Positions 29,290 to 63,680 of a stretch of DNA of 64,000 bases are shown piece by piece. Position 1 is the stretch's first letter. The number at the start of each line of letters is the position of its first letter. Source of the stretch: Bacillota bacterium (lineage in GTDB: Bacteria; Bacillota; Clostridia; TANB77; CAG-465); contig JAEWPS010000038.1 of NCBI GenBank assembly GCA_023460515.1, positions 7,409 through 71,408 on the forward strand, written 5' to 3'. Under the pieces are notes generated by a model. It saw only the letters and a list, made by a program, of their open reading frames with translations. It searched no databases and had not been told where the DNA came from. The translations under genes were made by a program, and so were the position numbers.

Positions 29290-29349
29290 TAATTTAGTAT
29301 TTAGTATAGTTATAATGACTAATTATTAAATAAAAATAGGAGGATTTAT

Positions 29350-48601: not shown

Positions 48602-48627
48602 ATATACCTCCGCTTAAATCCAAATTA

Positions 48628-48656
48628 ATTATACCACAAATATGCTTGTTTAGCAA
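48628..48656 (-). promoter_or_regulatory. dedicated promoter for fmt (TTGCTA-N17-TGgTATAAT)
   Basis: On the minus strand: TTGCTA at 48651..48656 and an extended -10 TGGTATAAT with TATAAT at 48628..48633, ~27 nt before the fmt ATG. Confidence 0.6.
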
Positions 48657-48685
48657 TACTTTATGTTAATACATATATAAAAATA

Positions 48686-48707
48686 GCGCTACAAAATACT
48701 GTAACGC
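48686..48707 (-). terminator. weak hairpin terminator after giant gene 1
   Basis: GCGCTACA...TGTAACGC (one mismatch), followed by T-rich sequence on the minus strand. Confidence 0.35.
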
Positions 48708-48806
48708 CATTTTAAATTTTATTTTTTCTTATATGTCACAAAAAAGTGTTCGTAACTCAAATGTTCAATTTCTATAGCAGATTTATCACTTGATTTACTT
48801 TAATCT

Positions 48807-51800
48807 TTATGGATAAATTTCATACAATCTGATACTAGCATATGCGACTTGTGTGAAATATTTTATATATTTTGTATTCGCAGGTACTGTATATGTATCT
48901 GTATATAATGTAACACCATTTATTTTGCTATTTCTAGTAAACGTACTTATAACTGTTTTTTGAGAATTTAAAAAGCTTATACCTGGTATTCCTTCACCCA
49001 TATCCCATTTACATTTTATTGTTTTTCCTATCATACTTGGATCTACTTCTATATATTGATCTGTCTTAGTATAAGTAGATGTATTCAAATTATTGTCAAA
49101 CGCTTCTACTTTTAATGCGTCAGCCACATTTGCCGTATAACTAGATATTATTCTTGTTTCACTTCCATATTGATCTATTCCTTTTGCATATATTGTCTGA
49201 CCTTGATCTACTTTGATAGGATTATTAATATAATTTAACCATTCTCCGGTTGTTCCTATTCTATATAATTTTTGTATACTACTTTGAAAATATGAAATTG
49301 ATACCATTTGATGTGGTAGTCTTACAGCATTTGCTGGATCTGCTGTTAATATCATATATCCATCTGTTGTAGTAAATGTTGGTTCATCGCTTAACCCAAT
49401 TTCATAAAAAGCATTATAATTACCAAGAACTCCATCATACGTATACATTATCCATTTTGCATTTACTGGGACAGTATATATATCATTGTATGTTCCAATA
49501 TTTGCTCTACTTAGTGTATCTATTACGTTTTTATTTTCATCTAAAAATTTCAAGTATATTGAACCAGAATTACCTATTGCTCCTCTATTCCATAAAATCC
49601 ATATTTTCTTTCCTTGTATACTACTATCGACCTTAATATATCTATTATTAGCAGATGTATATGTAGTATTATTTTTATCATAAGATTCTGCTCCTAAAGC
49701 ATCATTCATAGTAGCAGTATAACTTGATACAATTCTAGTTTCAATTCCACTTTGATCTATTCCTTTTGTATATATTGTCTGACCTTGTAATACCTTTATA
49801 GGTTGGTCGTTATAATTTAACCACTCTCCAGTTGTTCCTATTCTATATAATCTTTGAACACTCGTTGGAAAATAATTTACTGTTACCATTTGATATGGTT
49901 CTCTTACATCTCTTGTTGGATCGGCTGATAGTACCATATAAGAATTTGCTGCACTGAATGTTGGTTCATTACTTGTTTGTATCTCATATAATCCATAAAT
50001 ATTAACTACCTTTATCCACTTTGTATTTAGTGGAATAGTATATACTTCATCATACATAAGGTTTTGATTATACACAGTTTTATCAATTTGACTTATTATT
50101 TGTCTACTTTCATTTAAGAATACAATACTTTGAGTTGATGGACCATTTGCTGCAACATTCCACTTAACCCTCATATTTTTTCCTTGCATAGTACTATCTA
50201 CAGCCATATATTGATTTGTTGCATTAGAAATATATGTACTGTTATTACCATCATACGCTTGCGCTTTCAATGCATCGGCTGGCATAGTTACTGTCTGACT
50301 AACTGATACTTCTAATCCACTACCTTTTTTAACGCTTTTGGCTATTATTGTTCCACTTGAAACATGTATTGGGGCTGTATATAATGTCCATGTTGTTCCG
50401 TTATTCGTACTATAATAATTATCTATATCTGTTCTATTATCATATACTATAGTTGTTGTATCATCAAATATTACACCATATGAAGCTAATATTGGATAAC
50501 TAGCTGTTGAATTTATAACTGGCAACTTTGGTTTATCTAGATCTAGACTTACTACCTTCTTTTGAACAGTTATTTCATTTCCGGCTGTATCTTTACCTTT
50601 TGCATATATTGTTACTGTTCCGTCTGCATTTTGCCAATTGTTTGCTAATATTGTATTTGATGTTATTGCAAATGTAGCTGTATAATTAGTCCAAACCGCA
50701 TTACTTGTTCCAATCTTATACTGTTTTAAAGTAGCATCGCCATAGTTTATTGTTACATTTGCATTTAATCCTACTGTGGTTTCTGGACTAACTTGTATAT
50801 CTATTTTTGGAGCAGTTAAGTCTACATTTGTTACATTTAATGTATATACTTGTTTATTTCCTACTCTATCTTCCGCGTAGAATGTATAGTAACCATTACT
50901 TGTTATATTTACTATATTATTATTCGCTATACTAGTTCCACCACTTGAAAAGTAACTTTCCCCTAAAGTTCCTGGGGCCCACTTAACCATTCCAACTTCT
51001 ACATCATCTGTTACATTTACTTTTACTGCTACTTTTTGCATTGCAGTATTTAAATCTGCAGTTAAATTAATTATTGGAGGATTCTCATCAATATTTGTTA
51101 CTTTAAGCATTCCTTCCCTAGACCATACTTCACTTTCATCCATTCCTTTTGCATATATTACTGCGTTATTTCTATCTACAGTTATTGGACCAGTATAATC
51201 TTGCCAGTCTCCTAGTGTTTCATTTGGATTTAATATTCTATACTGTTTCGTTATAAGTGATTGATCATATATAATAGTTGCATTTACCTCTTTAGCTGGA
51301 TTAGTTGTATTTAATACAATTTGTGGAGCTCCAGCTGCAACTCTATCCCATCTCATAAATATATTTTCAAACATTTCGCTTATTGGTACATTAATTAAAT
51401 AATAATCCCCCATAAATGTTATCAAATTACCATTTTCATCTTCTATTTTTACTAGTGTTCCATTTTGTATGACAGTATCTTTAAATTCTGGTTTTATTAA
51501 TAATATTCCATCATTTTTATAACTTTTCCAATCACCAGTTGAAGTCCATTTGTACTCTCTACCATTTGAACCTTCTGGGTAATTTAATTTTAATATATAA
51601 TAACTTCCTTTATCCAGTACAAGTACCGGTGGTGGTGGAACTATATTACTTACAGTATATGTTGAATTAGAACTTTGTCCTTTAATATTTTCACTATATG
51701 CAAATATTTTAGTACCGTTTTTTGTTACTTCAATATCTCCTGTATAATCTCTCAAAGATCCACCATCTATACTATATCTTTTAATTGTTGCATATTTATC

Positions 51801-54317
51801 ATAGCTTATTTTAACAGTAACTTTACTTGCCTGTATTTTATTTGATGGATTTGCGATTATTTCAGGTTCAGATATTCCATCTACTATATTATCTATAGTT
51901 TTAGCTGTTTGACCTAGTGAATTTGGTGCTTTTGCATACGCATACACTGTACAGCTTTTATCTACTTCAAACGCTCCAGTATATTCTTTCAAATCACCAT
52001 TTGAACCAATTTTATAGTATTTTTCTACTGCTTTCACATCATATTCTATATTTACTGTAGCCTTTGCAACCTTTGTAGTAGAAAGAGCTGGTTCAGGATT
52101 TACATTTATATTTATAGCTAAATTTTGTGTAGTCTTTGGAGGAGTTAATTTTCCTATATTTGTTATATCTAAATATGTATCTGTTACTCCATTTACGTTA
52201 GTACCTCTAGCATATATTCTTTTATTTTCAGTTATTGTAATAGGTGCAGTATATGGTACATATATAATTCCATCCTCGCTATATTGTATTTTGTCTGCAT
52301 CATTATATTTTACTGTCACAATTACTGAACTTTGCCCATATGTAGAACTCCACGGATATACTACTGCATCTATATATACATATGGTTTAGTAGCTGAAGT
52401 ACTACCTGTATCTCCAGGTTTTTTAATATTTTGGATTCTTGCCCTTGCTTCTTGTGATTGTCTACCGTCAGCTGTTTTATAATATGCATAAATTTCCACA
52501 TTATCTCTAACAACAATTGATGATTTATATTCTACATAATCTCCATATCTACCAACTTTTAAATATGTTTTGTTTGCTCCAGCAGGTGATGACACACTTA
52601 CTGTTACCGATGATACAAATCCACTGGTTGGATCTAAATTTATTATAGGAGCAATAGGTATAGTATCTATTACAGGTGGCTCTGGATAAGTATCCGGTGG
52701 CGTTACCACTTCGTTTATCCTAATATACGCTATATTTGACTTATTTCCATCTGAATCATAATAATATGCCATTATGAAAGTTCCCCAATTATTAACAATT
52801 ATATCTTGTGAATAGGTTTGTTCTAATCCATAATTTTGTATATATATTTTTTTAGCAGCATTTGCTGGATAAGTTATCTGTACTCTTGCTTTTTCATCAG
52901 CATTTTGCCCCGCATTTCTAGTAATAGTAGGTGCTACTAAATTATTAGTAGTAGACGTTTTCGGTGGTTCAAAAGGCGGTGGATTTTTTGGTTCATAAGG
53001 AGGTAATGGTTCATGTGGAGTAGGTTCCTTAGGAGGATTACCAGTTGTTGTATCATTTATATATATTGATGTTGAAACAGATTTTTTTCCACTAGCGTCA
53101 TAGTAATATGCTATTATGTATGTTCCATAATTTTGTACATTTACTTCGCTTGTATAATTTTCTTCTACTCCATAATTTATTGTATATATTTTTCTAGTGG
53201 CATTCTCTGGATATGTTACTTTTACTCTTGCTTTTTCTGTTCCTACTGGATCTAATCTAGTTATTGTTGGTGCTGCCAAAGTAATTTCTTTTATTTCTAT
53301 ATTTCCTATATATACACTATCACTTCCAGCAATATCTCTTGTAAGAAGTAACGAACCATCTGTGTTATATATATTTTCAGTCTTTTTTGCTCTTGCTTCT
53401 ATTATACAGTTTTCAGTTATAGTGAAAGGTCCTGTATATGACATCCAACCGCTTTCACCAACTCTATACTCTTTAATTGTTGCAGTTTCATCATAATTTA
53501 TATTTACATTTACTTGCTCAACTTTTGTAGTTCCGCTACTATCTGGAACTATATCTACTAAAAGTGTTCCTGCCGGTGGAATAACTACCTCTTTACCATT
53601 TACTTTATATTTTATCCATACATCTTTTGTTCTATCTAATGGAATTGTTATTGGTCCTGTGTAATTTTGCCACATTAACATTGGATCTACTCTAATTTCA
53701 CCTTCACTACCAAGTCTCCACTTTTTTTCCGTTGAATTTGCTGGATAGTATAACGTCAATTTTATCCAACCATCCCACATCTCCTGATTTTCTTCAGGTC
53801 CAGTAATACTTCCATTATCTATTATCCCGTTATCTAAAGTATGCCACCTTTTACCTTCAAAACTATCTCCAACATAATCATAAATTTGGTTTGTTTTTAC
53901 ATCTATTATATATCCTTTATCTTTCTTATTACTTGCTAAACCATTTACACCGGCTTGACTTTCATTTATCCAATATAAATCTATATCGTCTACTGTTTTA
54001 CCAGGATTTAATTCCTCAATTGTTGTGCTCAGTGTTGGCACATTACTTGTTATGTCTTGTTTATCGCTTAAACTTAGTTTACCTTCTAATGGAAGTTTAA
54101 AACTGTTTGGACTAGATATATCTATATTACTAACTGAATACAGATTTACCCCTTCCTCAACATTTTTAAAATCACTCATGAATCTTGCCTTTTTAGAACT
54201 ATCCATGATACCACCATTATTTAGAGTAAGAATTACTGCACCAGCTAAAATAATTACAACTATTATTGTTATAACTAAAGCTATTAATGATATCCCTTTT
54301 ACATTATATTTTTTCAT
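48807..54317 (-). CDS. giant (1836 aa) prepilin-like-leader surface protein: Ig-like repeat stalk plus three C-terminal discoidin/CBM32-like units
   Basis: N-terminus MKKYNVKG|ISLIALVITIIVVIILAGAVILTL. At least 14 ~85-aa repeats carry Y..G....W..YTGP(I/F).(I/V)...N..IYA(K/R)(A/G) (chitobiase/hexosaminidase C-terminal-like Ig). Pro-rich linker PPKEPTPHEPLPPYEPKNPPPFEPP. C-terminal triplicated (A/N)DAL.(A/V)(E/Q)(A/S)(Y/F)D.N..T(Y/S) ... LYEI units. GGAGG SD before ATG 54317. Confidence 0.85.
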   Translation of the reverse strand: MKKYNVKGISLIALVITIIVVIILAGAVILTLNNGGIMDSSKKARFMSDFKNVEEGVNLYSVSNIDISSPNSFKLPLEGKLSLSDKQDITSNVPTLSTTIEELNPGKTVDDIDLYWINESQAGVNGLASNKKDKGYIIDVKTNQIYDYVGDSFEGKRWHTLDNGIIDNGSITGPEENQEMWDGWIKLTLYYPANSTEKKWRLGSEGEIRVDPMLMWQNYTGPITIPLDRTKDVWIKYKVNGKEVVIPPAGTLLVDIVPDSSGTTKVEQVNVNINYDETATIKEYRVGESGWMSYTGPFTITENCIIEARAKKTENIYNTDGSLLLTRDIAGSDSVYIGNIEIKEITLAAPTITRLDPVGTEKARVKVTYPENATRKIYTINYGVEENYTSEVNVQNYGTYIIAYYYDASGKKSVSTSIYINDTTTGNPPKEPTPHEPLPPYEPKNPPPFEPPKTSTTNNLVAPTITRNAGQNADEKARVQITYPANAAKKIYIQNYGLEQTYSQDIIVNNWGTFIMAYYYDSDGNKSNIAYIRINEVVTPPDTYPEPPVIDTIPIAPIINLDPTSGFVSSVTVSVSSPAGANKTYLKVGRYGDYVEYKSSIVVRDNVEIYAYYKTADGRQSQEARARIQNIKKPGDTGSTSATKPYVYIDAVVYPWSSTYGQSSVIVTVKYNDADKIQYSEDGIIYVPYTAPITITENKRIYARGTNVNGVTDTYLDITNIGKLTPPKTTQNLAININVNPEPALSTTKVAKATVNIEYDVKAVEKYYKIGSNGDLKEYTGAFEVDKSCTVYAYAKAPNSLGQTAKTIDNIVDGISEPEIIANPSNKIQASKVTVKISYDKYATIKRYSIDGGSLRDYTGDIEVTKNGTKIFAYSENIKGQSSNSTYTVSNIVPPPPVLVLDKGSYYILKLNYPEGSNGREYKWTSTGDWKSYKNDGILLIKPEFKDTVIQNGTLVKIEDENGNLITFMGDYYLINVPISEMFENIFMRWDRVAAGAPQIVLNTTNPAKEVNATIIYDQSLITKQYRILNPNETLGDWQDYTGPITVDRNNAVIYAKGMDESEVWSREGMLKVTNIDENPPIINLTADLNTAMQKVAVKVNVTDDVEVGMVKWAPGTLGESYFSSGGTSIANNNIVNITSNGYYTFYAEDRVGNKQVYTLNVTNVDLTAPKIDIQVSPETTVGLNANVTINYGDATLKQYKIGTSNAVWTNYTATFAITSNTILANNWQNADGTVTIYAKGKDTAGNEITVQKKVVSLDLDKPKLPVINSTASYPILASYGVIFDDTTTIVYDNRTDIDNYYSTNNGTTWTLYTAPIHVSSGTIIAKSVKKGSGLEVSVSQTVTMPADALKAQAYDGNNSTYISNATNQYMAVDSTMQGKNMRVKWNVAANGPSTQSIVFLNESRQIISQIDKTVYNQNLMYDEVYTIPLNTKWIKVVNIYGLYEIQTSNEPTFSAANSYMVLSADPTRDVREPYQMVTVNYFPTSVQRLYRIGTTGEWLNYNDQPIKVLQGQTIYTKGIDQSGIETRIVSSYTATMNDALGAESYDKNNTTYTSANNRYIKVDSSIQGKKIWILWNRGAIGNSGSIYLKFLDENKNVIDTLSRANIGTYNDIYTVPVNAKWIMYTYDGVLGNYNAFYEIGLSDEPTFTTTDGYMILTADPANAVRLPHQMVSISYFQSSIQKLYRIGTTGEWLNYINNPIKVDQGQTIYAKGIDQYGSETRIISSYTANVADALKVEAFDNNLNTSTYTKTDQYIEVDPSMIGKTIKCKWDMGEGIPGISFLNSQKTVISTFTRNSKINGVTLYTDTYTVPANTKYIKYFTQVAYASIRLYEIYP
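48810..50546 (-). repeat. three tandem ~191-194-codon units (Ig-like plus discoidin/CBM32-like) at the 3' end of giant gene 1
   Basis: The DAL(K/G)(A/V) motif recurs at residues 1348, 1539 and 1733 (hand-indexed from coordinates 50276, 49703, 49121). Flanking blocks Y(Q/H)MV(T/S)(V/I)(N/S)YF..S(V/I)Q(R/K)LYRIGTTGEWLNY repeat nearly verbatim in units 2 and 3. Confidence 0.8.
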
Positions 54318-54397
54318 AAGTAACCTCCATATATATATTTATTATATCCATTTATTGATTTTCTAATAAACTTTTATTAACATATTTTTACATAAAT

Positions 54398-54433
54398 AAA
54401 ATTGCTAATAAACCTACTTATATTAGCAATTTT
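54398..54433. promoter_or_regulatory. 12-bp perfect inverted repeat (AAAATTGCTAAT-N12-ATTAGCAATTTT) abutting the -10 box of giant gene 1; candidate operator
   Basis: Arms at 54398..54409 and 54422..54433. An identical element lies at 62533..62568, although 6 of 12 spacer bases differ. Confidence 0.55.
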
Positions 54434-54462
54434 ATTATATTATATATGTTTTTTTTTGTCAA
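54434..54462 (-). promoter_or_regulatory. perfect sigma-A consensus promoter of giant gene 1 (TTGACA-N17-TATAAT)
   Basis: On the minus strand: TTGACA at 54457..54462 and TATAAT at 54434..54439. The spacer is built from TA repeats plus a T/A homopolymer. Confidence 0.7.
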
Positions 54463-54494
54463 TATCTTTTACACTTATTATATGTTAAATTATG

Positions 54495-54514
54495 ATTTGT
54501 AATATATTTGTAAT
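54495..54514. promoter_or_regulatory. direct repeat ATTTGTAAT-N2-ATTTGTAAT upstream of the giant gene 1 promoter
   Basis: Copies at 54495..54503 and 54506..54514 (11-bp period). The same pair is conserved at 62630..62649 upstream of giant gene 2. Confidence 0.4.
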
Positions 54515-54586
54515 CTTAAAACATATTGTCTATTTAATTGTTTTTTTAAAATATTTTATTATCCACTTTTATTAAATTTGACATAT

Positions 54587-54596
54587 GTGTTATAAT
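54587..54596 (+). promoter_or_regulatory. extended -10 promoter (TGtTATAAT) for the 305-aa gene
   Basis: TGTTATAAT ends at 54596 with a weak -35. The AAGGAGGG SD and ATG 54669 follow. Confidence 0.4.
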
Positions 54597-54668
54597 ATAT
54601 GATATTTAATATTTTAATGTATACAAAAACTTTTGTATACACTTACAATAATTTAAGGAGGGTCTACT

Positions 54669-55586
54669 ATGATATCATTAAATTCTTTCATATATCTACT
54701 AAAAAACACTCTGCCTACTGGTTTAGATGATATTTCAAAGGCAAAATATCTATATATACGATTGGGGGAAATTATTTCTTTCGATCCTCTATATTCATTT
54801 GGATCAAGCAAGGATCGATATCGGATATATAATAATATACAATACAAATATGATGATTTAAACGAATTATTTGAAAGCAAATTATTAATTTGTAAATCTA
54901 TTGCATATATCTATAAATATATACTTAATGAATTTGAAATTAATTCATATGTACGTTATGATAATCCAGATGATAATCACGTGTTTAATATCATTATAAC
55001 CCAGAATAACGTTAAAATTTCTGCTGATGTACAACGTGATTTAGAATTTATACAAACTAAGTCAAAAACACGGTATTTTGATTTTATCAATAGTACTTTA
55101 TATGATCAAGTAGAAATTGATAAGAAAATTGGCTATTTGCAAAATGATAATGATTATTTTGATATTAAGTTGCTTGAGTTTAAAAATTTTCTTAAAAAAA
55201 ATACCTCGCTAATTAGTAAAGTTGAATCAATATTTAATTTCTTATTTTGTAATAATAACATAAATAATTTAAAATTCTCAGAAAATATAAAATATTATAA
55301 ATATGTGTTAAAAGAAATTTTAGATTACAGAGAATTTAATAGATTATATTTCTCAATATGTTATGAAATCTGTAACAATAAACAAAAGTATATTCCTATA
55401 ATATGTATACGTTCTAATCCCTCAACAATTTTTATTTACTCTGAAAAAAATCATAAATATGATTTAATTTCCGAAATAGAGTTGTTAAAAAGGTTAAAAA
55501 GTAATTTACTCTTTATTCAAAGAGGTTCAATTTATATTATGAAAAAAGAAATAATATCTACAACAAACTTAAACAAAATCTTATAA
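54669..55586 (+). CDS. hypothetical cytoplasmic protein with possible transglutaminase-like Cys-His-Asp core
   Basis: 305 aa with a strong AAGGAGGG SD and no signal peptide. LLICKSIAYIYKYILNEF (C75) ... DNHVFNIII (H104) ... SADVQRD (D120/D124) matches the spacing of transglutaminase-like cysteine peptidase cores. It is the only plus-strand gene in the block. Confidence 0.6.
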   Translation: MISLNSFIYLLKNTLPTGLDDISKAKYLYIRLGEIISFDPLYSFGSSKDRYRIYNNIQYKYDDLNELFESKLLICKSIAYIYKYILNEFEINSYVRYDNPDDNHVFNIIITQNNVKISADVQRDLEFIQTKSKTRYFDFINSTLYDQVEIDKKIGYLQNDNDYFDIKLLEFKNFLKKNTSLISKVESIFNFLFCNNNINNLKFSENIKYYKYVLKEILDYREFNRLYFSICYEICNNKQKYIPIICIRSNPSTIFIYSEKNHKYDLISEIELLKRLKSNLLFIQRGSIYIMKKEIISTTNLNKIL

Positions 55587-55606
55587 TTAATAACCCAGCT
55601 ATAAAT

Positions 55607-55650
55607 AAAAATAAATATTGAAATGTAATTACATTTCAATATTTATTTTT
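55607..55650. terminator. bidirectional terminator between the 305-aa gene and giant gene 2
   Basis: Perfect 22-bp palindrome AAAATAAATATTGAAATGTAAT/ATTACATTTCAATATTTATTTT, checked base by base. Confidence 0.75.
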
Positions 55651-55774
55651 TATTTCTTTTTTTACGTTATATGAAAGCTATCCTTACAAAACATACAACA
55701 AAAATATTATTAGCATATATTTCCCATAGTACTAGTTTTTAAACTTTATACTATAAAATCTTTATTTAAATATT

Positions 55775-58700
55775 TTATAGTCCAGTGTTTACTACAATTA
55801 CTGGAATAAATCCACATCCAGTATTTCCACCATATGTATTATACATAGCAAATATCCCTGATGTTTTTGGTGTATTTTGATTCCAATATTCTCCACCACG
55901 TACACAAAAGCCATTACTATAATCTGGGGTTATTAGATAGTTATAAAACCATGCGTAAGCTCCTGAATATTCAGCTATCTCATACATTGCATGACCTTTT
56001 GGAGATGTAGTACTAAATAATGTTGTTGGTGTATATACATCTTTATATTGCGCTGGTGCATTAACTAAATTATTTCCCCAACCTAAAGATACATCACTTC
56101 TATATGCAGCTACAAAACTTCCTTTTACAGAAGACATATCATATATACCATATATATTTCCTGTTGTAGTTTGAGCAGCATTTGAAATATATCCTGTTCC
56201 TGTTGCACCACCTGTAGTAGTTGTAGAATTTCTAGTTATTTCAATTGCATCTTTTCCATAAGAAGATTTACTTAAATATGCTACTGCACCCCATTCAGAA
56301 TTCTTAATTAAATGTGTATCTAAACCTGATCCTGTAGTGCCCCATCCATACCTACTATTTGTTTCCATATTTCTACTTGCTGTGTATGCACCATTTATTC
56401 CACTACTATACATATCTAGCACTGTTATACCTGGTTTAAAATCTGGATTAGTAGTACTTCCGCTAGCCATGAATTTTGCTACCCATATACCCGTTAATTC
56501 TGTTGTTCCGAAGGTAAATGCTGGATGAGTAGTCCATGCGTTATTTGATGTAGTTACTGCACTTCCTGTATTTACTGTCCTATTAGAATTCCATAAATCA
56601 TTTATGCCTTGACTAAATTGTATATTTATTACTCCTGTAGTACTTGTTTGATGCCATCCTGAAGATATTTTATATACATATCTTGGTATCCACACCCACA
56701 TACTTCCATCTGCTGTTTGCGCATTTGCCCATTCTTTATTTTTATAGTTATACCAATTAGTATTATTATCTGGATCTGTAACTGTATCCCATGTGCTTGT
56801 TGAACTGTTCCAAATTTTTGCTGTCATTCCTGGTGCAAGCATTGGTTTATTTGCAACACCTTCCTCAATATTAGTTATAGTAATAGTACTTTGACCACTA
56901 TAATTTCCAGCTGCATTTCTTCCTCTAGCATAAATAGTAGTATTGTTTACTGTAACTACTATAGGCGATGTATATGTAAGCCACGTTGTTCCATTTAAAC
57001 TGTATTGCTTTGTTGTTACATCTGAAGAATATGTAATTGTAACTGTTACATTTCCACTTGTAAGTCCTGTAGGAGAAGCTGACATAATAGGATTTATTGG
57101 TGATATATTAGTTACTGTATATGTAGTTTCAGGAGACCAAAATCCATTTTGATCTAACGCTTTAGCATATATAATTGTAGTATTTTTATTTACTATAAAC
57201 GGACCTGTATAATCTAACCAATTACCTAATGTTCCACCTGGTTCTAGAATTCTGTATTTTCTTTCTACTGAACCTTGTTCATATGTAATTGTAGCTGTAA
57301 CTTCAGGTGCATTTGAAGTAGGATTTACTGTAACTTTAGGTTCTTCAGGCGCTACAACTATTATTGGTCTAATAATCCCATTTTCGTTACTGTATGTATT
57401 TTCTAAGCTAAATATACCAGCTTTATATGTACTATAATAATATCCTCCTCTCATGAAGAATGGTGAATATGAATACGGCTTATCTATAAAGTTACCAAAC
57501 CATTCTAGATTTCCACTATAATTACTTGAAGTTTCATAAAAAGCATCACCTTTTTTAGATGTTGCACTATATATATCTGTAATAGAATACATATCTCTAT
57601 ATTTAGCATTGGCATTTATCATAATCGGTGCATAAGCTAAATATCCGTTAGAATTATCATTTAAATATGCTGCAACAAAAGTGTATTTCATAGCTGACAT
57701 ATCGTATACACCATGTATATTTCCTGTAGTACTTTGCGCTCCATTAGATACATATGAGTTTGTAGTTCCACCACCTGCATAATATGAAGTACTAGGATTT
57801 ATAGATATTTCAACAGTATTTTTTCCATATGAAGATTTACTTAAATATGCAATTGCTCCCCATTCAGTATTTTTTATCATATGGGTATCTACCCTTTCAC
57901 CACTAGTTCCCCAACCATATCTGCTATTTGATTCCATATTTCTAACTGCTGTAAATGCTCCATCTAAACGTCCTATATTATATGCATCTAACATTGTACC
58001 ACCAGGCTTCGAATCAATTGCTGAACTAGTACCACTAGCTGCAAATTTTGCAACCCATATTCCAGTTAATTCCTGTGTTCCAAATGTAAATGCTGTATGA
58101 TTCGTCCAAGTATTATTTGATGCAGATGCTAAATTCGAGGTATTTATCAAACCTATTACTGCACTATTCCAATTATCATCTATACCTTTACTAAATTGTA
58201 TATTTATAACTCCTGTATTTGTTGTTTGATGCCATCCTGAAGATATTTTATATACATATCTAGGTATCCATACCCACATACTACCATCGGCTGTTTGTGC
58301 ATTTGCCCATTCTTTCCCAGCATAATTATACCATGTTGTATCAGTATCTGGATTAGTTACTGTATCCCACGTACTACTAGAACTATTCCATCTTTTTGCT
58401 GTCATACCTGGTGCAAGTAATGGTTTATTTACAACTACTTGAATTGCAAGTACAAAGGCGTTAGTTTTATTTACTACAGTATTTCCCGCATTATCCGTTC
58501 CCTTTACCCATAAATAATAAGTTCCTTCGACACCTGTTTTTGTTATTAATGAAGCATTCGTAAATGCTACCCAGCCTGAAGTTGGTGTAGTGATATTTTG
58601 TACATCCCAAACATATTGTAATGTTGATGCATCTACTCCACTACCATCAGTGTCTGTTACTGTAACTGTTGTACTAGCAGTTTCTACATTATTTGCTCCA

Positions 58701-61700
58701 TTAGTACTAAACCCAACCACAGGATTTATCTTATCTATATTTGAAACGGTAAGTGTACTTTGACCACTTTGATTCCCAGCTTCATCTTTTGCTTTAGCAT
58801 ATACAGTCGTATTATTATTTGTAATTATTATTGGGTTTACGTAAGCTTGCCAAGAAGTACCATTAGTACTATACTCTTTAATCACAGAACTTTCACTATA
58901 TACTATTGTAACAGTCACGCTTCCTTTAGTCCATGACGTTGGTGCTGCTGAAAGAATAGGATTTTCTGGCGGCAAAACGTCTATATTCTCAACATTTAAA
59001 GTATATACCTGTTTATTTCCTACTTGATCTTCCGCATAGAAAGTATAGTATCCATTTTCTGTTATGTTAACATTACTATTATTTGTTATTACAACTCCAT
59101 TTGAAGTAAAATAACTTTCACCTTGAGTGCCAGGTGCCCATTTTACTATACCCACAGCAACATCATCTGTTACATCTACTTTCACAGCTACACTTTGTTT
59201 TACAGATGTAAGATCTGCTGTTAGTTTTATTACTGGTGCAACTTCATCAATATTAGTTACTTTAAGCATTGCCTCTTGAGACCAAACTTCACTATTATCC
59301 ATAGCTTTTGCATATATTATAGTATTATTTCTGTCTATTATTATAGGTCCATTATAATTTAACCAATCTCCAAGTGTTCCACCAGGTTGTAATATTCTAT
59401 ATTGTTTTTTTACCATTTCTGTATCATAAACAATCGTTGCAGTAACTTGCTTTGTCGGTTCTATAGGATTTATTACTATTTGTGGAGCTAATGGTGCTAC
59501 TCTATCCCATCTCATAGATATATTAGCAAATAACTGACTTATTGGAACATCTATTAAATAATAATCACCTTCAAATGTTACTAATTTTCCATTTTCATCT
59601 TCTATTTTAATTAATGTACCGTTTTTTATAACTGAATCTTTAAATTCTGGCTTTATTAATAATATACCAGATTCTTTATACGGTTTCCACTCGCCATTTT
59701 CTTTCCACTTATATTCTCTACCTTTTGATCCTTCTGGATAACTTAATTTTAATAAATAATAATTTCCTTTATCTAGTGCAAGAACTGGTGGTGGAGGTAT
59801 TATATTTTCTACTGTATATCTTGAACTAGACTTTTCACCAGAACTATTTTCGCTATATGCATACACAGTTGTACCATTGGTAGTTATATCAAATGGTGCT
59901 GTATAGTCAATTAGTGCTGAACCATTTATACTATATTTTTTTATAGTTGCATACTTATCATATGTTATATTTATTCCAACTTTACTTGCTTGTATACTAT
60001 TACTTGGACTTGGAATTATTACAGGATTAGATATTCCAAGTAGTAAATTATCTATTACTTTAGATGCTTCACCTTTTCCATTTATAGATTTTGCATATGC
60101 ATATATAGTACAACTACTTGTTATATCAAATGGTACTGTATACGTTTTTAAATCTCCATATTTTCCAATTGAATAGTATTTTTCTGTTGCTTTACTATCA
60201 TATTCAATACTTACTTTTGAACTCGCAACCTTTGACGTAGATAATGAAGGTTCAGGATCTACGTTTATATTTACAGCCAAAATTTCAATTGCATCTGGTA
60301 CTTTTATTGCACCAATATTTGTTATATCCAAATACGCTTCTGATACACCATACGCGTTTGTCGCTCTAGCATATATTCTTTTATTTTCTTTTACTACAAA
60401 AGGAGCCGTATATGGATTATATACTATTCCATCATTACTATATTCTACTTTATCTGCATAACTAGATGCTACATTTACTACAACTTCAGTTGATTTATCT
60501 GCTCCACTCCATGGATACGGATTTGCATTTATATAGACATATGGCTTTTTATTTGCTGTTCCGTCATCATTTTTCAAAATATTGCTTATTCTTGAATGAG
60601 CTTCAAGTGACTTTTCCCCTGCAGAATTTCTATAGTATGCGTATAATTCAACATTATCCTTTACTACTACTGGAGTTGTATATTCTTGATATGTTCCATA
60701 TCTTCCTATTTTTAAGTATGTAACAGTTGCTCCAGCTGGAGAGGTTACACTAACTGATACCTCTGATACCAAACCACTATTTGGGTTTATATTAATAACA
60801 GGTGCTGGAACTATTTCTGAAGGTTCTATTGGAACTGGTTCTAAAATTCCTGGATCTGTTGGAATCTCGTTTACCCTAATCCATGCTATCTGAGATTTAT
60901 TACCATCTGCGTCATAATAATATGCCATTATATATGTTCCCCAGGTTGTTACACTTATCTCACTTACATAATTTTGTTCTACCCCATAATTTTGTGTAAA
61001 TATTTTCCTATCTGCATTTGCTGGATATGTTATTTGAATTCTTGCCTTTTCACTTCCATTTGAAGCATCAAGTCTTGTTATAATTGGTGGCGGAAGTTTT
61101 ATTTTTGTATCAGGCTCATATGGCAACGGAACTTCTGGCACATACGGCGGAAGTGCCTCATAAGGTTTAGGATCTTCTGCGGCCTTTACCGTAGTGTCGT
61201 TTATATATATCGATGTAGACAATGATTTTTTACCACTTACATCATAATAGTAGGCTATAATATGTGTTCCATAACTTTTTATACTTACTTCACTTGTATA
61301 GTTTTGTTCTACTCCATAATTTATCTTGAATATTTTTCTAACTGCATTTTCTGGATATGTTATTTGCAGCCTTGCTTTTTCATCACCGGTAGCAGGAGGA
61401 AGCCTTTTTATAACCGGGGCAGCAAGGTTAGTTTCTTCAACACCTATATTACCTATATATACTAGATCTTTTCCAACTATATCTCTTGACATAAGTAAAG
61501 TTCCATCTGTATTATATATATTTTCTGTCTTTTTTGCTCTTGCTTGTATAAGGCAATTTTCTGTAACAGCAAATCCTCCAACATATGGCATCCAATCGCT
61601 ATTTCCCACTTTGTATTCTTTTGTTGTAGCATCACTATCATAATTTATATTTACATTTACTTCAGAGACTTTTGTTGTTCCAGTTTTATCTGGAACTATA

Positions 61701-62455
61701 TCTACTAAAAGTGTTCCTGCTGGTGGCACTATAACCTCTTCATTATTAATTTTATACTTAATCCATACATCTTTTACTCTATCTAACGGTATTGATATAG
61801 GACCTGTATACTCTTGCCACATAAGCATAGGATCTACTCTAATTTCGCCTTCATTTCCAAGTCTCCACATTTTAGCAGTTGAATTTGTTGGATAGTATAA
61901 AGTTAGATTTATCCAACCGTTCCATAATTCTTGTGTGTCTGGAACAACAGCTATTTCAGTAACTCCACCATCTAATGTATGCCATCTTTTGGTTTCAAAG
62001 AAATCTCCTACATAATCATATATTTGATTTGTTGCTACATCTATAACATAACCTTTATCTTTCTTATTACTTGCCAAACCTTTTACTCCGGCATCAGCTT
62101 CATTTATCCAGTACAAATCAATATCATTTATTGTTTTACCAGGATTTAATTCTTCTATTTTTGTTTTAAGCGTTGGAACATTATTTGCTATATCTTGTTT
62201 ATCACTTAAACTTAGTTTACCTTCTAATGGAAGCTTAAAACTGTTTGAACCAGATATATCTATATTACTAACTGAATACAGATTTACCCCTTCTTCAACA
62301 TTTTTAAAATCACTCATGAATCTTGCCTTTTTAGAACTATCCATGATACCACCATTACTTAAAGTAATAATTACTGCACCAGCTAAAATAATTATAACTA
62401 TTATTGTTATAACTAAAGTTATTAATGATATCCCTTTTTCATTGTATTTTTTCAT
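55775..62455 (-). CDS. giant (2226 aa) prepilin-like-leader surface protein: shared Ig-repeat stalk plus two C-terminal FGE/SUMF1-like (C-type-lectin-fold) modules
   Basis: ORF extends to 62518. Start moved to ATG 62455 (MKKYNEKG|ISLITLVITIIVIIILAGAVIITL), preceded by the same GGAGG SD as gene 1. Stalk paralogous to gene 1 through residue ~1159. The tip has two copies of NKP(L/M)LAPGMTAK.WNSS.STWDTVT...GSMWVWIPRYVYKISSGWHQ...ELTGIWVAKF.ASG...N.EWGA.AYLSKSSYGK...TTGNI.G.YDMS...RGG.Y. Confidence 0.85.
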   Translation of the reverse strand: MKKYNEKGISLITLVITIIVIIILAGAVIITLSNGGIMDSSKKARFMSDFKNVEEGVNLYSVSNIDISGSNSFKLPLEGKLSLSDKQDIANNVPTLKTKIEELNPGKTINDIDLYWINEADAGVKGLASNKKDKGYVIDVATNQIYDYVGDFFETKRWHTLDGGVTEIAVVPDTQELWNGWINLTLYYPTNSTAKMWRLGNEGEIRVDPMLMWQEYTGPISIPLDRVKDVWIKYKINNEEVIVPPAGTLLVDIVPDKTGTTKVSEVNVNINYDSDATTKEYKVGNSDWMPYVGGFAVTENCLIQARAKKTENIYNTDGTLLMSRDIVGKDLVYIGNIGVEETNLAAPVIKRLPPATGDEKARLQITYPENAVRKIFKINYGVEQNYTSEVSIKSYGTHIIAYYYDVSGKKSLSTSIYINDTTVKAAEDPKPYEALPPYVPEVPLPYEPDTKIKLPPPIITRLDASNGSEKARIQITYPANADRKIFTQNYGVEQNYVSEISVTTWGTYIMAYYYDADGNKSQIAWIRVNEIPTDPGILEPVPIEPSEIVPAPVININPNSGLVSEVSVSVTSPAGATVTYLKIGRYGTYQEYTTPVVVKDNVELYAYYRNSAGEKSLEAHSRISNILKNDDGTANKKPYVYINANPYPWSGADKSTEVVVNVASSYADKVEYSNDGIVYNPYTAPFVVKENKRIYARATNAYGVSEAYLDITNIGAIKVPDAIEILAVNINVDPEPSLSTSKVASSKVSIEYDSKATEKYYSIGKYGDLKTYTVPFDITSSCTIYAYAKSINGKGEASKVIDNLLLGISNPVIIPSPSNSIQASKVGINITYDKYATIKKYSINGSALIDYTAPFDITTNGTTVYAYSENSSGEKSSSRYTVENIIPPPPVLALDKGNYYLLKLSYPEGSKGREYKWKENGEWKPYKESGILLIKPEFKDSVIKNGTLIKIEDENGKLVTFEGDYYLIDVPISQLFANISMRWDRVAPLAPQIVINPIEPTKQVTATIVYDTEMVKKQYRILQPGGTLGDWLNYNGPIIIDRNNTIIYAKAMDNSEVWSQEAMLKVTNIDEVAPVIKLTADLTSVKQSVAVKVDVTDDVAVGIVKWAPGTQGESYFTSNGVVITNNSNVNITENGYYTFYAEDQVGNKQVYTLNVENIDVLPPENPILSAAPTSWTKGSVTVTIVYSESSVIKEYSTNGTSWQAYVNPIIITNNNTTVYAKAKDEAGNQSGQSTLTVSNIDKINPVVGFSTNGANNVETASTTVTVTDTDGSGVDASTLQYVWDVQNITTPTSGWVAFTNASLITKTGVEGTYYLWVKGTDNAGNTVVNKTNAFVLAIQVVVNKPLLAPGMTAKRWNSSSSTWDTVTNPDTDTTWYNYAGKEWANAQTADGSMWVWIPRYVYKISSGWHQTTNTGVINIQFSKGIDDNWNSAVIGLINTSNLASASNNTWTNHTAFTFGTQELTGIWVAKFAASGTSSAIDSKPGGTMLDAYNIGRLDGAFTAVRNMESNSRYGWGTSGERVDTHMIKNTEWGAIAYLSKSSYGKNTVEISINPSTSYYAGGGTTNSYVSNGAQSTTGNIHGVYDMSAMKYTFVAAYLNDNSNGYLAYAPIMINANAKYRDMYSITDIYSATSKKGDAFYETSSNYSGNLEWFGNFIDKPYSYSPFFMRGGYYYSTYKAGIFSLENTYSNENGIIRPIIVVAPEEPKVTVNPTSNAPEVTATITYEQGSVERKYRILEPGGTLGNWLDYTGPFIVNKNTTIIYAKALDQNGFWSPETTYTVTNISPINPIMSASPTGLTSGNVTVTITYSSDVTTKQYSLNGTTWLTYTSPIVVTVNNTTIYARGRNAAGNYSGQSTITITNIEEGVANKPMLAPGMTAKIWNSSTSTWDTVTDPDNNTNWYNYKNKEWANAQTADGSMWVWIPRYVYKISSGWHQTSTTGVINIQFSQGINDLWNSNRTVNTGSAVTTSNNAWTTHPAFTFGTTELTGIWVAKFMASGSTTNPDFKPGITVLDMYSSGINGAYTASRNMETNSRYGWGTTGSGLDTHLIKNSEWGAVAYLSKSSYGKDAIEITRNSTTTTGGATGTGYISNAAQTTTGNIYGIYDMSSVKGSFVAAYRSDVSLGWGNNLVNAPAQYKDVYTPTTLFSTTSPKGHAMYEIAEYSGAYAWFYNYLITPDYSNGFCVRGGEYWNQNTPKTSGIFAMYNTYGGNTGCGFIPVIVVNTGL
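55778..56851 (-). repeat. FGE/SUMF1-like module B (internal duplication in giant gene 2)
   Basis: Residues 1869-2247, paralogous to residues 1343-1702. The 45-residue block from ...WANAQTADGSMWVWIPRYVYKISSGWHQT... is almost identical. Confidence 0.75.
57350..58429 (-). repeat. FGE/SUMF1-like module A (internal duplication in giant gene 2)
   Basis: Residues 1343-1702. See module B. Confidence 0.75.
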
Positions 62456-62532
62456 AAGTAACCTCCATATAAACTTATTATACCCATTTATTTGTTTGCT
62501 AATAAACTTTATTAACAAATTTTTACATAAAT

Positions 62533-62568
62533 AAAATTGCTAATTAAATACGTTATATTAGCAATTTT
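62533..62568. promoter_or_regulatory. second copy of the AAAATTGCTAAT-N12-ATTAGCAATTTT inverted repeat (candidate operator)
   Basis: Arms at 62533..62544 and 62557..62568, directly abutting the -10 box at 62569..62574. Confidence 0.55.
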
Positions 62569-62597
62569 ATTATACTTTATATATGTTTTTTTGTCAA
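62569..62597 (-). promoter_or_regulatory. perfect sigma-A consensus promoter of giant gene 2 (TTGACA-N17-TATAAT)
   Basis: On the minus strand: TTGACA at 62592..62597 and TATAAT at 62569..62574. Confidence 0.7.
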
Positions 62598-62629
62598 TAA
62601 TTTTTATACTTATTACATGTTAAATTATT

Positions 62630-62649
62630 ATTTGTAATATATTTGTAAT
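62630..62649. promoter_or_regulatory. direct repeat ATTTGTAAT-N2-ATTTGTAAT upstream of the giant gene 2 promoter
   Basis: Copies at 62630..62638 and 62641..62649. Same element and same distance from the -35 as at 54495..54514. Confidence 0.4.
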
Positions 62650-62663
62650 TTAAAAATATACGA

Positions 62664-62693
62664 AGAAAAAACAACTATATATATAATAGTTGT
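62664..62693 (-). terminator. terminator of the def / DUF86-like transcription unit
   Basis: Stem ACAACTAT (62671..62678) / ATAGTTGT (62686..62693), followed on the minus strand by TTTTTT. Confidence 0.65.
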
Positions 62694-62708
62694 CTTAAAA
62701 ATATATTA

Positions 62709-63119
62709 TTATCCTCTTTTATGCAAATCTTTTAAAAATATGCTAAGAGTTGGTAATTCGTTTAAAATTATATCATACATATATTTACTAGTAACTTCAT
62801 CATAATTAAAAATTAATTTGTTTCTAATATTCAACATACTATAATACTTGTCCAAATTTTTAGAATCTAATTTACCATTTTTACATAGTATTTCAAAAAT
62901 TTCATTATAATTTGAACCATTTTGAAGTTTAAATTTTTGAATAGTATGGGCGGACAAAAATATGGCAGTTTGAATCGCTCCATACATATATGTTTGCGAT
63001 GCGGCAGCATTCTTAGAATTTTCACAAAAACTTTTCTCATCCAGCTTTAGAAAATTTGATAATTCAATAACACATTTCTTAAAGAACTTAACTTTATCTG
63101 TTACCACTTTATTATCCAT
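62709..63119 (-). CDS. DUF86 (HepT/YutE-like) four-helix protein with degenerate R-x4-H-x-Y motif
   Basis: 136 aa. The C-terminal LNIRNKLIFNYDEVTSKYMYDIILNELPTLSIFLKDL matches the DUF86 pattern RN.L.H.Y..(I/V)d...(V/I)...(I/L)...L..L..F, but with Phe in place of the catalytic His. No adjacent nucleotidyltransferase (MNT) gene. Confidence 0.5.
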   Translation of the reverse strand: MDNKVVTDKVKFFKKCVIELSNFLKLDEKSFCENSKNAAASQTYMYGAIQTAIFLSAHTIQKFKLQNGSNYNEIFEILCKNGKLDSKNLDKYYSMLNIRNKLIFNYDEVTSKYMYDIILNELPTLSIFLKDLHKRG

Positions 63120-63143
63120 ATTTTTTACTCCTTTAAAATATAT

Positions 63144-63680
63144 TTATTTTTTATTTTTCTTATATTTTTTATTATTCTTACTATCCTTTGTACTATCTTC
63201 CTTCTCTCCTACGTATGTATTATATGCAATATCCACAAAAACTCTTCCATCTAGATGATCAATTTCATGTTGTAACACAATAGACTCTACATCTTTTGCA
63301 TGAATTATTATTTTGCTTCCATTTAAATCTTTTGCTTCTACTGTTATTTTTTCATGTCTATCTACATATCCAAATAAATCAGGAAAACTTAAGCATCCTT
63401 CTTCAGTAGTTACCATTTGTTTAGATGATTTAGTAATTACAGGATTAATCAAAACCTTCGGATTCTTAACTCCATCATCTTTTACATATTCTGAGTCATA
63501 AACGACTATTCTTTTCAAAATTCCAACTTGACATGCAGCAATTCCTATACCATCATATTTATACATGGTTTCTATCATGTCATTTGCAATTTCTTTTATT
63601 TTGTCATCAATTACTTCTACTTCTCTAGATTTTTTATATAGTAATTCATCTTTTAGTTTACGTATTTCTCTAACTGCCAT
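63144..63680 (-). CDS. def: peptide deformylase
   Basis: 178 aa with GIGIAACQVG, EGCLSFP and QHEIDHLDG. Lys-rich C-terminal extension. Confidence 0.93.
   Translation of the reverse strand: MAVREIRKLKDELLYKKSREVEVIDDKIKEIANDMIETMYKYDGIGIAACQVGILKRIVVYDSEYVKDDGVKNPKVLINPVITKSSKQMVTTEEGCLSFPDLFGYVDRHEKITVEAKDLNGSKIIIHAKDVESIVLQHEIDHLDGRVFVDIAYNTYVGEKEDSTKDSKNNKKYKKNKK

Follow-up and report, generated by a model that had tools for sequence, protein, structure and literature searches.

In this Clostridia contig, the interval between def and fmt is probably an old gene-turnover hotspot, whose cargo consists of independently transcribed, modular pilin-like adhesins. We hold this view with moderate confidence. 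The DNA analyzed (64 kb, referred to here as the window) carries intact copies of both genes on the minus strand. The peptide deformylase gene def (63144..63680) matches Pep_deformylase in Pfam (E = 1.1e-50) and TIGR00079 in NCBIfam (151 bits, cut-off 104), and its motifs read GIGIAACQ, EGCLS and QHEIDHLDG. The fmt gene (47657..48601), which forms the fixed right flank, also has Pfam and NCBIfam matches (TIGR00460, 298 bits, cut-off 201.5) and overlaps rlmN by 4 nt. As the original prediction had it, def and fmt share a strand but lie 14.5 kb apart, and fmt is not directly downstream of def. The gap (48602–63143; 14,542 nt) holds four genes: a HepT-like gene, two giant paralogues encoding proteins of 2226 and 1836 aa, and an orphan on the opposite strand, orf305. 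Signals in the gap comprise three hairpin terminators, a pair of perfect TTGACA-17-TATAAT promoters and one further promoter, for fmt.

Compared to the canonical def-fmt operon of E. coli and B. subtilis, the genes here are likewise intact and unchanged in strand and order, but 14.5 kb and terminators separate them, and fmt has a promoter to itself. Upstream of def, priA is replaced by ftsK, and ftsK is likewise found there in L035 (the source contig) and in the sister species L117 and L123. The pair had been described as normally contiguous, and this stands only in part. Distant Clostridia do keep priA-def-fmt together, with def directly upstream of fmt in 16 of the 27 loci fetched (PriA was verified in one of these genomes, L003), but a 2025 survey of 5,042 reference genomes found def and fmt co-localized in only 58% of bacterial species (PMC12690207).

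Gene order between def and fmt in related genomes

Three sister species (L117, L123 and L124) show ∼82–84% protein identity to the window for fmt, rlmN and PrkC. A common backbone, ftsK-def-hepT … fmt-rlmN, is seen in the window and the sister species, with different cargo in each. In L117, def-hepT is followed by a 2025-aa giantB orthologue (76% identity, at the same locus), two small ORFs (o112 and o84) and fmt, in an interval of 7.3 kb. In L123, def-hepT is followed by genes encoding proteins of 498 aa, o112-like, 526 aa, 417 aa, 165 aa, orf305-like, o84-like and 395 aa, and then by fmt; this 8.8-kb interval contains no giant but four pilin-like genes of 395–526 aa. The L124 contig is partial and retains the fmt-side end, where fmt is accompanied by a GyrI-like gene, a gene resembling orf305 and the 3′ end of one resembling giantB. 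On the right, the order is fmt promoter and then fmt-rlmN-PP2C-prkC-rsgA-rpe.

The original prediction ascribed the split to the accessory block with its giant genes. This did not hold up, neither as the work of the giants nor as a recent event: the split is common to L117 and L123, and even L123, a relative without giants, keeps def and fmt apart, an outcome that the prediction itself had set against its reading. The separation of def and fmt is not a recent insertion and is ordinary in itself. Its age is only loosely bounded, because in the nearest other GTDB species (L002) no def lies within 4.5 kb of fmt and the contig ends there before any def is reached. A metagenome scan with def was dominated by the universal QHEIDHLD motif and yielded no relative above 48% identity.

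The first gene of the interval belongs with the flank. The HepT-like/DUF86 gene (62709..63119, minus strand; PF01934, E = 1.2e-15; NF047751, 60.8 bits, cut-off 60) starts 24 nt past def in the same orientation. Its product is 82–83% identical in L117 and L123, and the gene adjoins def in the sister species; it is therefore part of the conserved left flank and not variable cargo. The catalytic motif of HepT is Rx4HxY. In the window, this motif reads RNKLIFNY, with Phe in place of His, and L117 carries the same Phe. No MntA partner is adjacent, the neighbors being def upstream and a terminator downstream. Hence, although the protein matches HEPN/HepT family HMMs, it differs from HepT/MntA type VII toxin–antitoxin systems in its catalytic residue, in the missing MntA and in its position behind def, and it is probably not an active toxin. 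Its top PDB matches, to designer PPR proteins, were set aside as summed short-repeat artefacts.

Transcription signals in the interval

Behind def-hepT lies an intrinsic terminator (62659..62696, minus strand; stem 62668–62696 plus U-run). The hairpin is real, as originally predicted for the def plus DUF86-like unit: its folding energy is –10.3 kcal/mol (z = –3.97), and none of 200 shuffled sequences was equally stable. Our consensus scanner missed it because the stem is poor in G-C pairs. Two further terminators were found, one after giantB (48675..48713, minus strand; hairpin 48680–48713; –17.4 kcal/mol, z = –5.9) and one between the convergent genes giantA and orf305, where a perfect palindrome of 22+22 nt (55607..55650; –19.6 kcal/mol) would act in both directions.

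Consensus scanning also substantiated the promoters claimed for the individual genes. Each giant gene has its own TTGACA-17-TATAAT promoter matching at 12 of 12 positions, at 62569..62597 for giantA and 54434..54462 for giantB (both on the minus strand), and these are the only two such matches within 46–64 kb. The promoter and leader of giantB are 88% identical to those of giantA (repeat family D9). The extended –10 promoter of fmt, TTGCTA-17-TGgTATAAT (48628..48656, minus strand), is present as predicted and is conserved in L117 and in another assembly, L001. Promoter-like sites as a class show no enrichment in this AT-rich DNA (117 found versus 128 in shuffles), and hence the weight of these promoters comes from their position and conservation rather than from their number.

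Upstream of the giantA –35 box lies a direct repeat, ATTACAAATAT-ATTACAAAT (62630..62649, minus strand), which we regard as a candidate activator site. The second copy of this repeat, ATTACAAATATATTACAAAT (54495..54514, minus strand), lies upstream of giantB. The 64-kb window has two exact copies, both at the same position relative to a giant gene, and analogous repeats with an 11-nt period are found upstream of giant-family members elsewhere. The giantA leader (∼115 nt) opens with a hairpin (62531..62570, minus strand; –11.4 kcal/mol, z = –4.0) that has no Rfam match; the giantB leader begins with a similarly placed hairpin (54395..54435, minus strand; –13.6 kcal/mol, z = –5.8). No known RNA elements or tRNA genes were detected at the borders of the interval. 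The giants' own promoters and terminators, the hairpin after def-hepT and the conserved fmt promoter suggest that def and fmt are separate transcription units and that transcription of the pair may thus have been rewired.

Architecture and N-terminus of the giant proteins

The gene giantA (55775..62455, minus strand) starts at an ATG behind a GGAGG ribosome-binding site, not at the TTG at 62518. Its 2226-aa product comprises a pilin-like N-terminal module including the signal (about residues 1–165), a conserved family core of ∼1,100 aa with Ig-like/OmpL47-type repeats, and two modules of C-type-lectin/FGE fold, 364 aa each (nt 57344–58435 and 55778–56857). The 1836-aa product of giantB (48807..54317, minus strand) has the same kind of N-terminus and core and is 64% identical to giantA over 1272 aa. 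Its C-terminus carries three copies of a family-typical 105-aa unit, with an Ig-like domain after copies 1 and 2; a PDB profile search with the unit gave no match. The names of homologues suggested an F5/8 type C (discoidin) domain for this unit, an assignment that we rejected as unproven: the F5/8 type C Pfam matches in the homologues P0020 and P0027 sit in another, terminal domain, to which hhalign relates the giantB unit with a probability of 0.2. In all, the giant family yielded 86 matches. At least six copies are found in GCA_029256705.1, each next to different housekeeping genes. The giants are two old paralogues of a dispersed giant-protein family.

The fourth gene, orf305 (54669..55586, plus strand), has homologues in L123 and L124, and in both of these contexts it lies within the same def–fmt interval. 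It has no match in Pfam, PHROGs or PDB. Three residues are invariant (C75, H104 and D120), from which one might guess at a Cys-His-Asp hydrolase.

The larger cargo proteins all open with a type IV pilin-like class III signal lacking Glu5, that is, a short basic leader, Gly and then ∼21 hydrophobic residues. In the giants, the leader reads MKKYN(V/E)KG and is followed by ISLI. The Gly at –1 is invariant in an alignment of 21 family members, and at position 5 of the predicted mature protein giantB has Ala and giantA has Thr. The leader also recurs on short proteins, namely orf514 in the window and four proteins in L123. The Pfam N_methyl model (PF07963) does not match the N-terminus of the window proteins even at E ≤ 10. 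Other family members with the same core carry canonical GFTLIEL leaders instead, and those pass the model. A profile of the N-terminal module finds the type IV pilin PilE1 as its best match (8pfb_G, E = 2.3e-5); the alignment covers PilE1 residues 2–78 and places the predicted mature N-terminus in register. Geopilin, GspG and PilA follow. An AF2 model shows a 53-residue N-terminal helix (helices 11–34 and 37–63) leading into a beta-rich domain. Foldseek with this model returned no match at E ≤ 0.001, the best being PilA1 of C. difficile (6t8s, E = 3.6).

Modular pilins, which carry adhesive modules grafted onto the pilin part, are widespread (Raynaud et al. 2021, PMC8179133), and type IV filament tip complexes are capped by a subunit without Glu5 (Pelicic 2023, PMC10191384). 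The residue at position 5 of the giants is compatible with a tip-capping subunit only (PMC10191384). Like S. sanguinis PilB/PilC, ETEC CofB and GspK of the type II secretion system, the giants combine a class III signal-like leader with a long alpha-1 helix and carry adhesive or lectin-type modules grafted after it. The absence of Glu5 matches the capping subunit of tip complexes, and canonical pilin modules are found in relatives whose cores are identical. In contrast to the known modular pilins, the giants are 1836–2226 aa long (the largest protein that the 2021 survey, PMC8179133, mentions has 860 aa) and do not match the N_methyl (IPR012902-type) signature. Their copies, at least six per genome, are monocistronic and scattered, outside any pil operon and without linked assembly machinery, and the proteins are putative filament subunits. 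Many paralogues lacking Glu5 per genome sit poorly with one cap per pilus.

A different view is that the N-terminus is only a signal-anchor that stays uncleaved, or an export tag specific to the lineage. The giants would then be large adhesins or S-layer-like proteins tethered to the membrane independently of type IV filament machinery, and not filament subunits. This is possible but, in our judgment, not likely. It would accommodate the missing Glu5, the failure of the N_methyl model, the lack of a significant pilin fold in Foldseek, and the many paralogues per genome together with the short proteins that share the leader. It would also fit the gene content of the 64-kb window, in which no prepilin peptidase, pil, comG or filament-assembly genes were seen. 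Against it stand the in-register profile match to solved pilins, the invariant Gly at –1 and, in same-core homologues, the swapping in of canonical GFTLIEL pilin modules. Separately, ComEC is present at 9663–12101 of the window.

More tentatively, and with low confidence, one could view the class III signal without Glu5 as this lineage's general display system for a large, quickly shuffled repertoire of lectin-headed surface proteins of ∼400 to 2,200 aa. The proteins would be interchangeable type IV filament caps or a bacterial counterpart of the archaeal 'bindosome'. Each cassette would bring a portable promoter, a direct-repeat operator and a leader module, and def–fmt would be one dedicated site of cassette exchange.

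Origin of the interval and its variable cargo

Could the block have arrived recently, as a genomic island or degenerate mobile element that interrupted a contiguous def-fmt operon in this organism? Total GC is raised across the giants (0.31–0.33 versus ∼0.25), and family members occur at unrelated loci elsewhere, one of them beside a duplicated 5′ fragment of uvrB. However, GC3 and codon usage show the block to be native rather than foreign: GC3 is 0.133–0.136, compared to 0.10–0.15 in housekeeping genes, and codon usage does not leave the range of those genes. What raises total GC here is amino-acid composition (GC2 is 0.39–0.43, with native GC3). The block shows no integrase, transposase or tRNA and has no direct repeats at its flanks, in line with the original statement that no mobile element is recognizable. 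Searches by tblastn of phage and plasmid collections gave no matches, and 2.9 million viral contigs gave four matches, all confined to the leader; a phage, plasmid or viral origin was rejected on these grounds. One PHROG of unknown function matched an Ig-like repeat. Moreover, the split and its site are common to species ∼17% diverged in protein, and L117 and L123 thereby largely refute a recent insertion, which we consider very improbable.

The lectin-like modules raise the question of whether this locus is a hypermutation target, with the C-terminal modules of giantA serving as targets of a diversity-generating retroelement (DGR) elsewhere in the genome. A model of the 364-aa module (pLDDT 92.8) has the variable protein TaqVP as its best Foldseek match (5vf4; E = 3.6e-7, probability 1.00), followed by TvpA (2y3c) and FGE, and the position equivalent to the variable region (RGG…FRP) is kept. 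The fold is like that of DGR variable proteins and formylglycine-generating-enzyme-like domains, albeit with a TM-score of only ∼0.46 and ∼13% identity to the former. Unlike DGR variable proteins, giantA comes without template repeat or reverse transcriptase in the window and without strain-level hypervariability, and its module is fused to a pilin-type leader rather than a lipoprotein signal. Self-BLAST of the window revealed no TR/VR-like repeat whose mismatches are biased to adenine; no single base accounted for more than 56% of the mismatches, which is no more than expected in this AT-rich genome. No reverse transcriptase (RVT) was found among the window ORFs scanned. The C-terminal 100 nt of either module show no excess of substitutions relative to strain L001, and the orthologous modules in P0002 are not hypervariable in this part. 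We give the DGR idea scarcely any credence.

The giantA-type module itself belongs to no Pfam family, yet it is present in 3121 protein clusters, and pilin-type leaders are found in about half of the 149 top-scoring module matches scanned. The 526-aa protein of the L123 interval contains a giantA-type module (46% identity). Sub-threshold matches to the FGE-sulfatase Pfam family were seen in P0099, a homologue from the module family, and in the 395-aa protein of the L123 interval.

The window derives from a metagenome-assembled contig, but an assembly or binning artefact joining unrelated contigs can practically be dismissed, as the same layout recurs in independent assemblies from ENA, NCBI, JGI and Logan (L035, 100% identical to the window; L001, ∼96%; and L036). 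Within the species, we saw no raised divergence of the island, identity to L001 being 95–98% throughout except for one 1-kb bin in the terminal repeats of giantB (87%).

Our preferred explanation, a gene-turnover hotspot, would run as follows. An ancestral priA-def-fmt cluster would have been broken in an uncultured low-GC Clostridia lineage, a small clade of which appears to keep both flanks fixed, with ftsK-def-hepT and a terminator on the left and the fmt promoter followed by fmt-rlmN-PP2C-prkC-rsgA-rpe on the right. Between them would sit variable monocistronic genes for surface proteins, represented here by the two giant paralogues and orf305. Control of the giant promoters probably runs through the direct repeats upstream, and the mRNA may be stabilized by the leader hairpin. 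The pilin-like helix would insert the giants into the membrane; lacking Glu5, they would serve as tip subunits capping a type IV filament or else remain anchored in the membrane, and they would act as adhesins by presenting lectin-like heads on a long Ig-like stalk. Cargo would change as paralogues recombine, duplicate and shuffle domains, and also through allelic replacement that uses the conserved flanks as anchors, with no self-mobile element involved.

Replacement islands between core genes include the pneumococcal cps locus (dexB/aliA) and O-antigen loci (galF/gnd). The interval resembles these in its conserved flanks, its surface-structure cargo that differs between close relatives, its native composition and its lack of mobility genes. 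It differs in that the predicted cargo is protein adhesins rather than polysaccharide pathways, that the flanks are translation/ribosome genes normally found in one operon, and that exchange by recombination is here a presumed step.

Because separation of def and fmt is common, the split alone teaches little. The pilin-like giants are more informative. They are more than twice as long as the longest protein noted in the published survey of modular pilins, which required the N_methyl/IPR012902 motif (PMC8179133); the giants fail this motif and would therefore be missed by signature-based searches of that kind. The 364-aa C-type-lectin-fold head extends to more than 3,000 protein clusters. If the giants are pilus tips, they would allow one to study how very large cargo is presented on filaments, and they would bear on how adhesive specificities are swapped in bacteria without mobile elements. 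The conserved flanks, from def-hepT to fmt, offer a PCR or metagenomic handle on surface-protein diversity in this uncultured group.

Age of the def–fmt separation

In the window, which comes from an uncultured Clostridia bacterium and has a GC content of ∼25%, def (63144–63680) and fmt (47657–48601) are intact genes whose family scores clear the curated cut-offs by a wide margin. They lie on the minus strand, 14,542 nt apart. ENA contig ERZ27268983:k141_44814 matches this sequence at 100% identity, and GCA_029256705.1 matches it at ∼96%. The original prediction held that a 14.5-kb accessory block had split a normally contiguous pair. The separation itself is upheld, as is the lack of mobile-element marks: searches turned up neither an integrase or transposase gene nor a tRNA or flanking repeats. 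The idea of an accessory block splitting an operon is borne out only in part: the split appears to be old, ordinary and earlier than the genes that now occupy the interval (the cargo).

We compared 27 loci, fetched with fmt from species-representative genomes. In 16 of these, def lies directly upstream of fmt. Because this group includes Clostridia at 47–56% fmt identity, where PriA precedes def, the order priA-def-fmt is best read as the ancestral state in the wider group. Relatives at ∼82–84% protein identity share the backbone of the window, with rsmD, a 145-aa ORF, ftsK, def and hepT on the left and fmt, rlmN, PP2C, prkC, rsgA and rpe on the right; hepT is thus part of the conserved flank. 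The cargo differs. In one sister species (L117), the 7.3-kb interval encodes a single giant of 2025 aa, which shares 76% identity with giantB along its whole length, together with a lipoprotein (o112) and a small membrane protein (o84). In another (L123), the interval is 8.8 kb and encodes proteins of 498, 526, 417 and 395 aa; it also holds o112-like and o84-like genes, a further ORF of 165 aa and, on the opposite strand, an orf305 homologue. On a partial contig (L124), fmt is accompanied by a GyrI-like gene, a homologue of orf305 and the 3′ end of a giantB-like gene. L123 has no giant and still has def and fmt apart, an outcome that the original prediction itself had named as counting against it. 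The giants are therefore not what split the pair, and gene order argues that the separation is older than the cargo now in place. In a 2025 survey covering 5,042 reference genomes, def and fmt were co-localised in only 58% of species (PMC12690207), so their separation as such is unremarkable.

The closest other species in GTDB (L002; fmt 65% identical) has no def in the 4.5 kb of sequence available upstream of fmt. There, 5.5 kb (L002 5473–10964) separates fmt from rlmN, two genes that overlap in the window. This gap contains a gene pair present twice, made up of a 342/356-aa ORF and a membrane ORF of 110/116 aa, and, on the opposite strand, a repeat-rich 399-aa ORF; hence in this group the surroundings of fmt are unstable to either side of the gene.

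Further along the right flank, rsgA (42758–43658, minus strand) is broken into two ORFs of 172 and 122 aa by a +1 frameshift within the P-loop codons (GTACGGTAAA in the window versus GVGKSS in sister species). RsgA is intact at 301 aa in L117 and L123. The extra base is also present in an independent assembly (L001), which argues against a one-off assembly error and for either a true pseudogene or a recoding site.

Occupants of the interval and their expression signals

The HepT/DUF86-like ORF (62709–63119, minus) begins 24 nt past def. It reads RNKLIFNY at the catalytic motif, with Phe replacing His; the motif of the HepT family is Rx4HxY. Given this change, and since no MntA partner was found, the protein is probably not an active toxin. 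Its position right behind def is conserved in three species, and this def–DUF86 pairing is both unusual and stable. Next come giantA (55775–62455, minus; 2226 aa, with the true start an ATG preceded by GGAGG), orf305 (54669–55586, plus) and giantB (48807–54317, minus; 1836 aa). The orf305 product matched nothing known. Homologues occupy the same interval in both contexts examined (L123 and L124), and Cys75, His104 and Asp120 are invariant.

The transcription signals described originally are largely as claimed. The terminator closing the def plus DUF86-like unit is real (minus strand, stem 62668–62696 followed by a U-run; ΔG –10.3 kcal/mol, z –3.97), and two more lie 3′ of giantB and between giantA and orf305. 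Each giant has a perfect TTGACA-17-TATAAT promoter upstream, and these are the only two such sites in 46–64 kb. The separate fmt promoter, TTGCTA-17-TGgTATAAT, is present and is kept in L001 and L117. With terminators and promoters at five transcription-unit boundaries, separate transcripts would be made from def-hepT, giantA, orf305, giantB and the unit beginning fmt-rlmN.

Promoter and leader DNA of giantA and giantB are 88% identical. A portable promoter, TTGACA(A)n, recurs family-wide, one per family member, preceded by 2–3 direct repeats of ∼11-nt period whose sequence varies by species; ATTACAAAT is the version upstream of the window giants. An activator would bind these repeats, and a 5′ hairpin would stabilise the long giant mRNAs. 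The ∼115-nt leaders of the giants (62456–62568 and 54318–54433; L117 9880–10000) have in common a conserved box, TTTTATTTATGTAAAAAT(A/T)TGTTAAT, and a TGG(G/A)TATAAT element near the ribosome-binding site. They have no match in Rfam, and may contain a second promoter or a regulatory RNA.

Foreign origin of the block, as judged by composition, is not borne out. GC across the giants (0.31–0.33) exceeds that of the window because of codon position 2 (GC2 0.39–0.43); GC3 (0.133–0.136) and codon usage are indistinguishable from those of housekeeping genes. Phage and plasmid collections gave no match, and viral contigs gave four matches only, all confined to the leader region. In these IMG/VR contigs (L125–L128), protein residues 1 to 25–110 resemble the E5-less leader and helix, with up to 76% identity over residues 2–26. 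Island and flanks alike are 95–98% identical to strain L001. By these measures, the island DNA is native and long-resident. Turnover of its cargo would involve recombination between paralogues as well as allelic replacement via the conserved flanks. The sole 1-kb bin clearly less identical to L001 (49000–50000; 87% versus 95–98% elsewhere) corresponds to the terminal repeat units of giantB, and may reflect repeat-mediated recombination.

A family of giant pilin-like proteins

GiantA and giantB share 64% identity across the first 1272 residues. We detected 86 proteins of this family, nearly all in uncultured Clostridia MAGs, with unrelated housekeeping genes as neighbours. A full-length giantA orthologue (P0002, 74%) follows clpC, a tandem pair follows gyrA, and other members follow rpsO and a peptidase M14 gene; GCA_029256705.1 by itself has at least six copies. 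One member (P0008) adjoins a duplicated 5′ fragment of uvrB (L029 9299–9616, approximately codons 1–90), and the full uvrB downstream (L029 17866–19816) is itself frameshifted, a hint that recombination can bring in giant-gene cassettes and duplicate adjacent sequence in the process. In another genome, tandem giants of 1749 and 1717 aa (L031 10001–20803) are spaced by a small opposite-strand rubredoxin gene and so repeat the arrangement of the window, a pair with a spacer.

The larger cargo proteins (both giants of the window, the giant of L117 and the four short proteins of L123) all start with a short basic leader and an invariant Gly, followed by I-S-L-I-x-L-V-I-T-I-I-V. The product of orf514, elsewhere in the window, starts in the same way. 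A profile built from the N-terminal module has as its first match a type IV pilin of solved structure, PilE1 (8pfb_G, E = 2.3e-5), in register at the predicted mature N-terminus, followed by geopilin, GspG and PilA. The AF2 model (pLDDT 80.6) has a ∼53-residue helix followed by a beta-rich domain, and in many homologues the same downstream core is preceded instead by a canonical pilin module (KGFTLIELL), which passes the N_methyl model. The profile match, helix and homologues together point to a pilin-type N-terminus. Against this, the giants lack Glu5, the window proteins do not pass the N_methyl model, and a Foldseek search with the N-terminal model gave no significant pilin match. Published work describes type IV filament tip complexes as capped by a Glu5-less subunit (PMC10191384).

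The third window member of this leader class, orf514 (29350–30894, plus; leader MKRNEGVSLIVLVITIIVILILAG), has the same E5-less, pilin-like start and lies outside the block. In its N-terminal module it is similar to the short proteins of the L123 island, and its promoter (∼29262–29290) is of the TTGACAAAAA type, with TTTTGT(A/T)AAA repeats just upstream. The window also encodes a ComEC competence channel (9663–12101), and so genes for a Com pseudopilus and a prepilin peptidase may lie elsewhere in the genome of this organism.

The C-terminus of giantA consists of two 364-aa modules. The high-confidence module model (pLDDT 92.8, pTM 0.94) has as its best structural match TaqVP (E = 3.6e-7), a variable protein of a diversity-generating retroelement (DGR); TvpA and formylglycine-generating enzymes (FGE) come next, which places the module in the C-type-lectin/FGE fold. 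A DGR target was considered but gained no support: the window has no adenine-biased repeat pair and no reverse transcriptase among its scanned ORFs, and comparison with L001 and with the P0002 orthologue shows no C-terminal hypervariability. Altogether, 3121 representative protein clusters contain the module, typically at the C-terminus of a ∼500-aa protein; about half of the 149 listed matches that we scanned have a pilin-type leader, with or without E5. The 526-aa protein of the L123 interval has the same module (46% identity). GiantB instead ends in three copies of a family-typical 105-aa unit, with an Ig-like domain after copies 1 and 2; a profile search of the PDB gave no fold for this unit.

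According to published work, modular pilins that carry grafted adhesive modules are widespread, and the largest one noted has 860 aa (PMC8179133). In the giants, the pilin-like helix would export and anchor the protein, which would either cap a type IV filament or remain in the membrane, displaying lectin-like heads on Ig-like stalks. Judged from sequence, the cargo appears to be a new, very large, E5-less form of modular pilin-like adhesins, and it is these proteins, rather than the def–fmt split, that are worth following.
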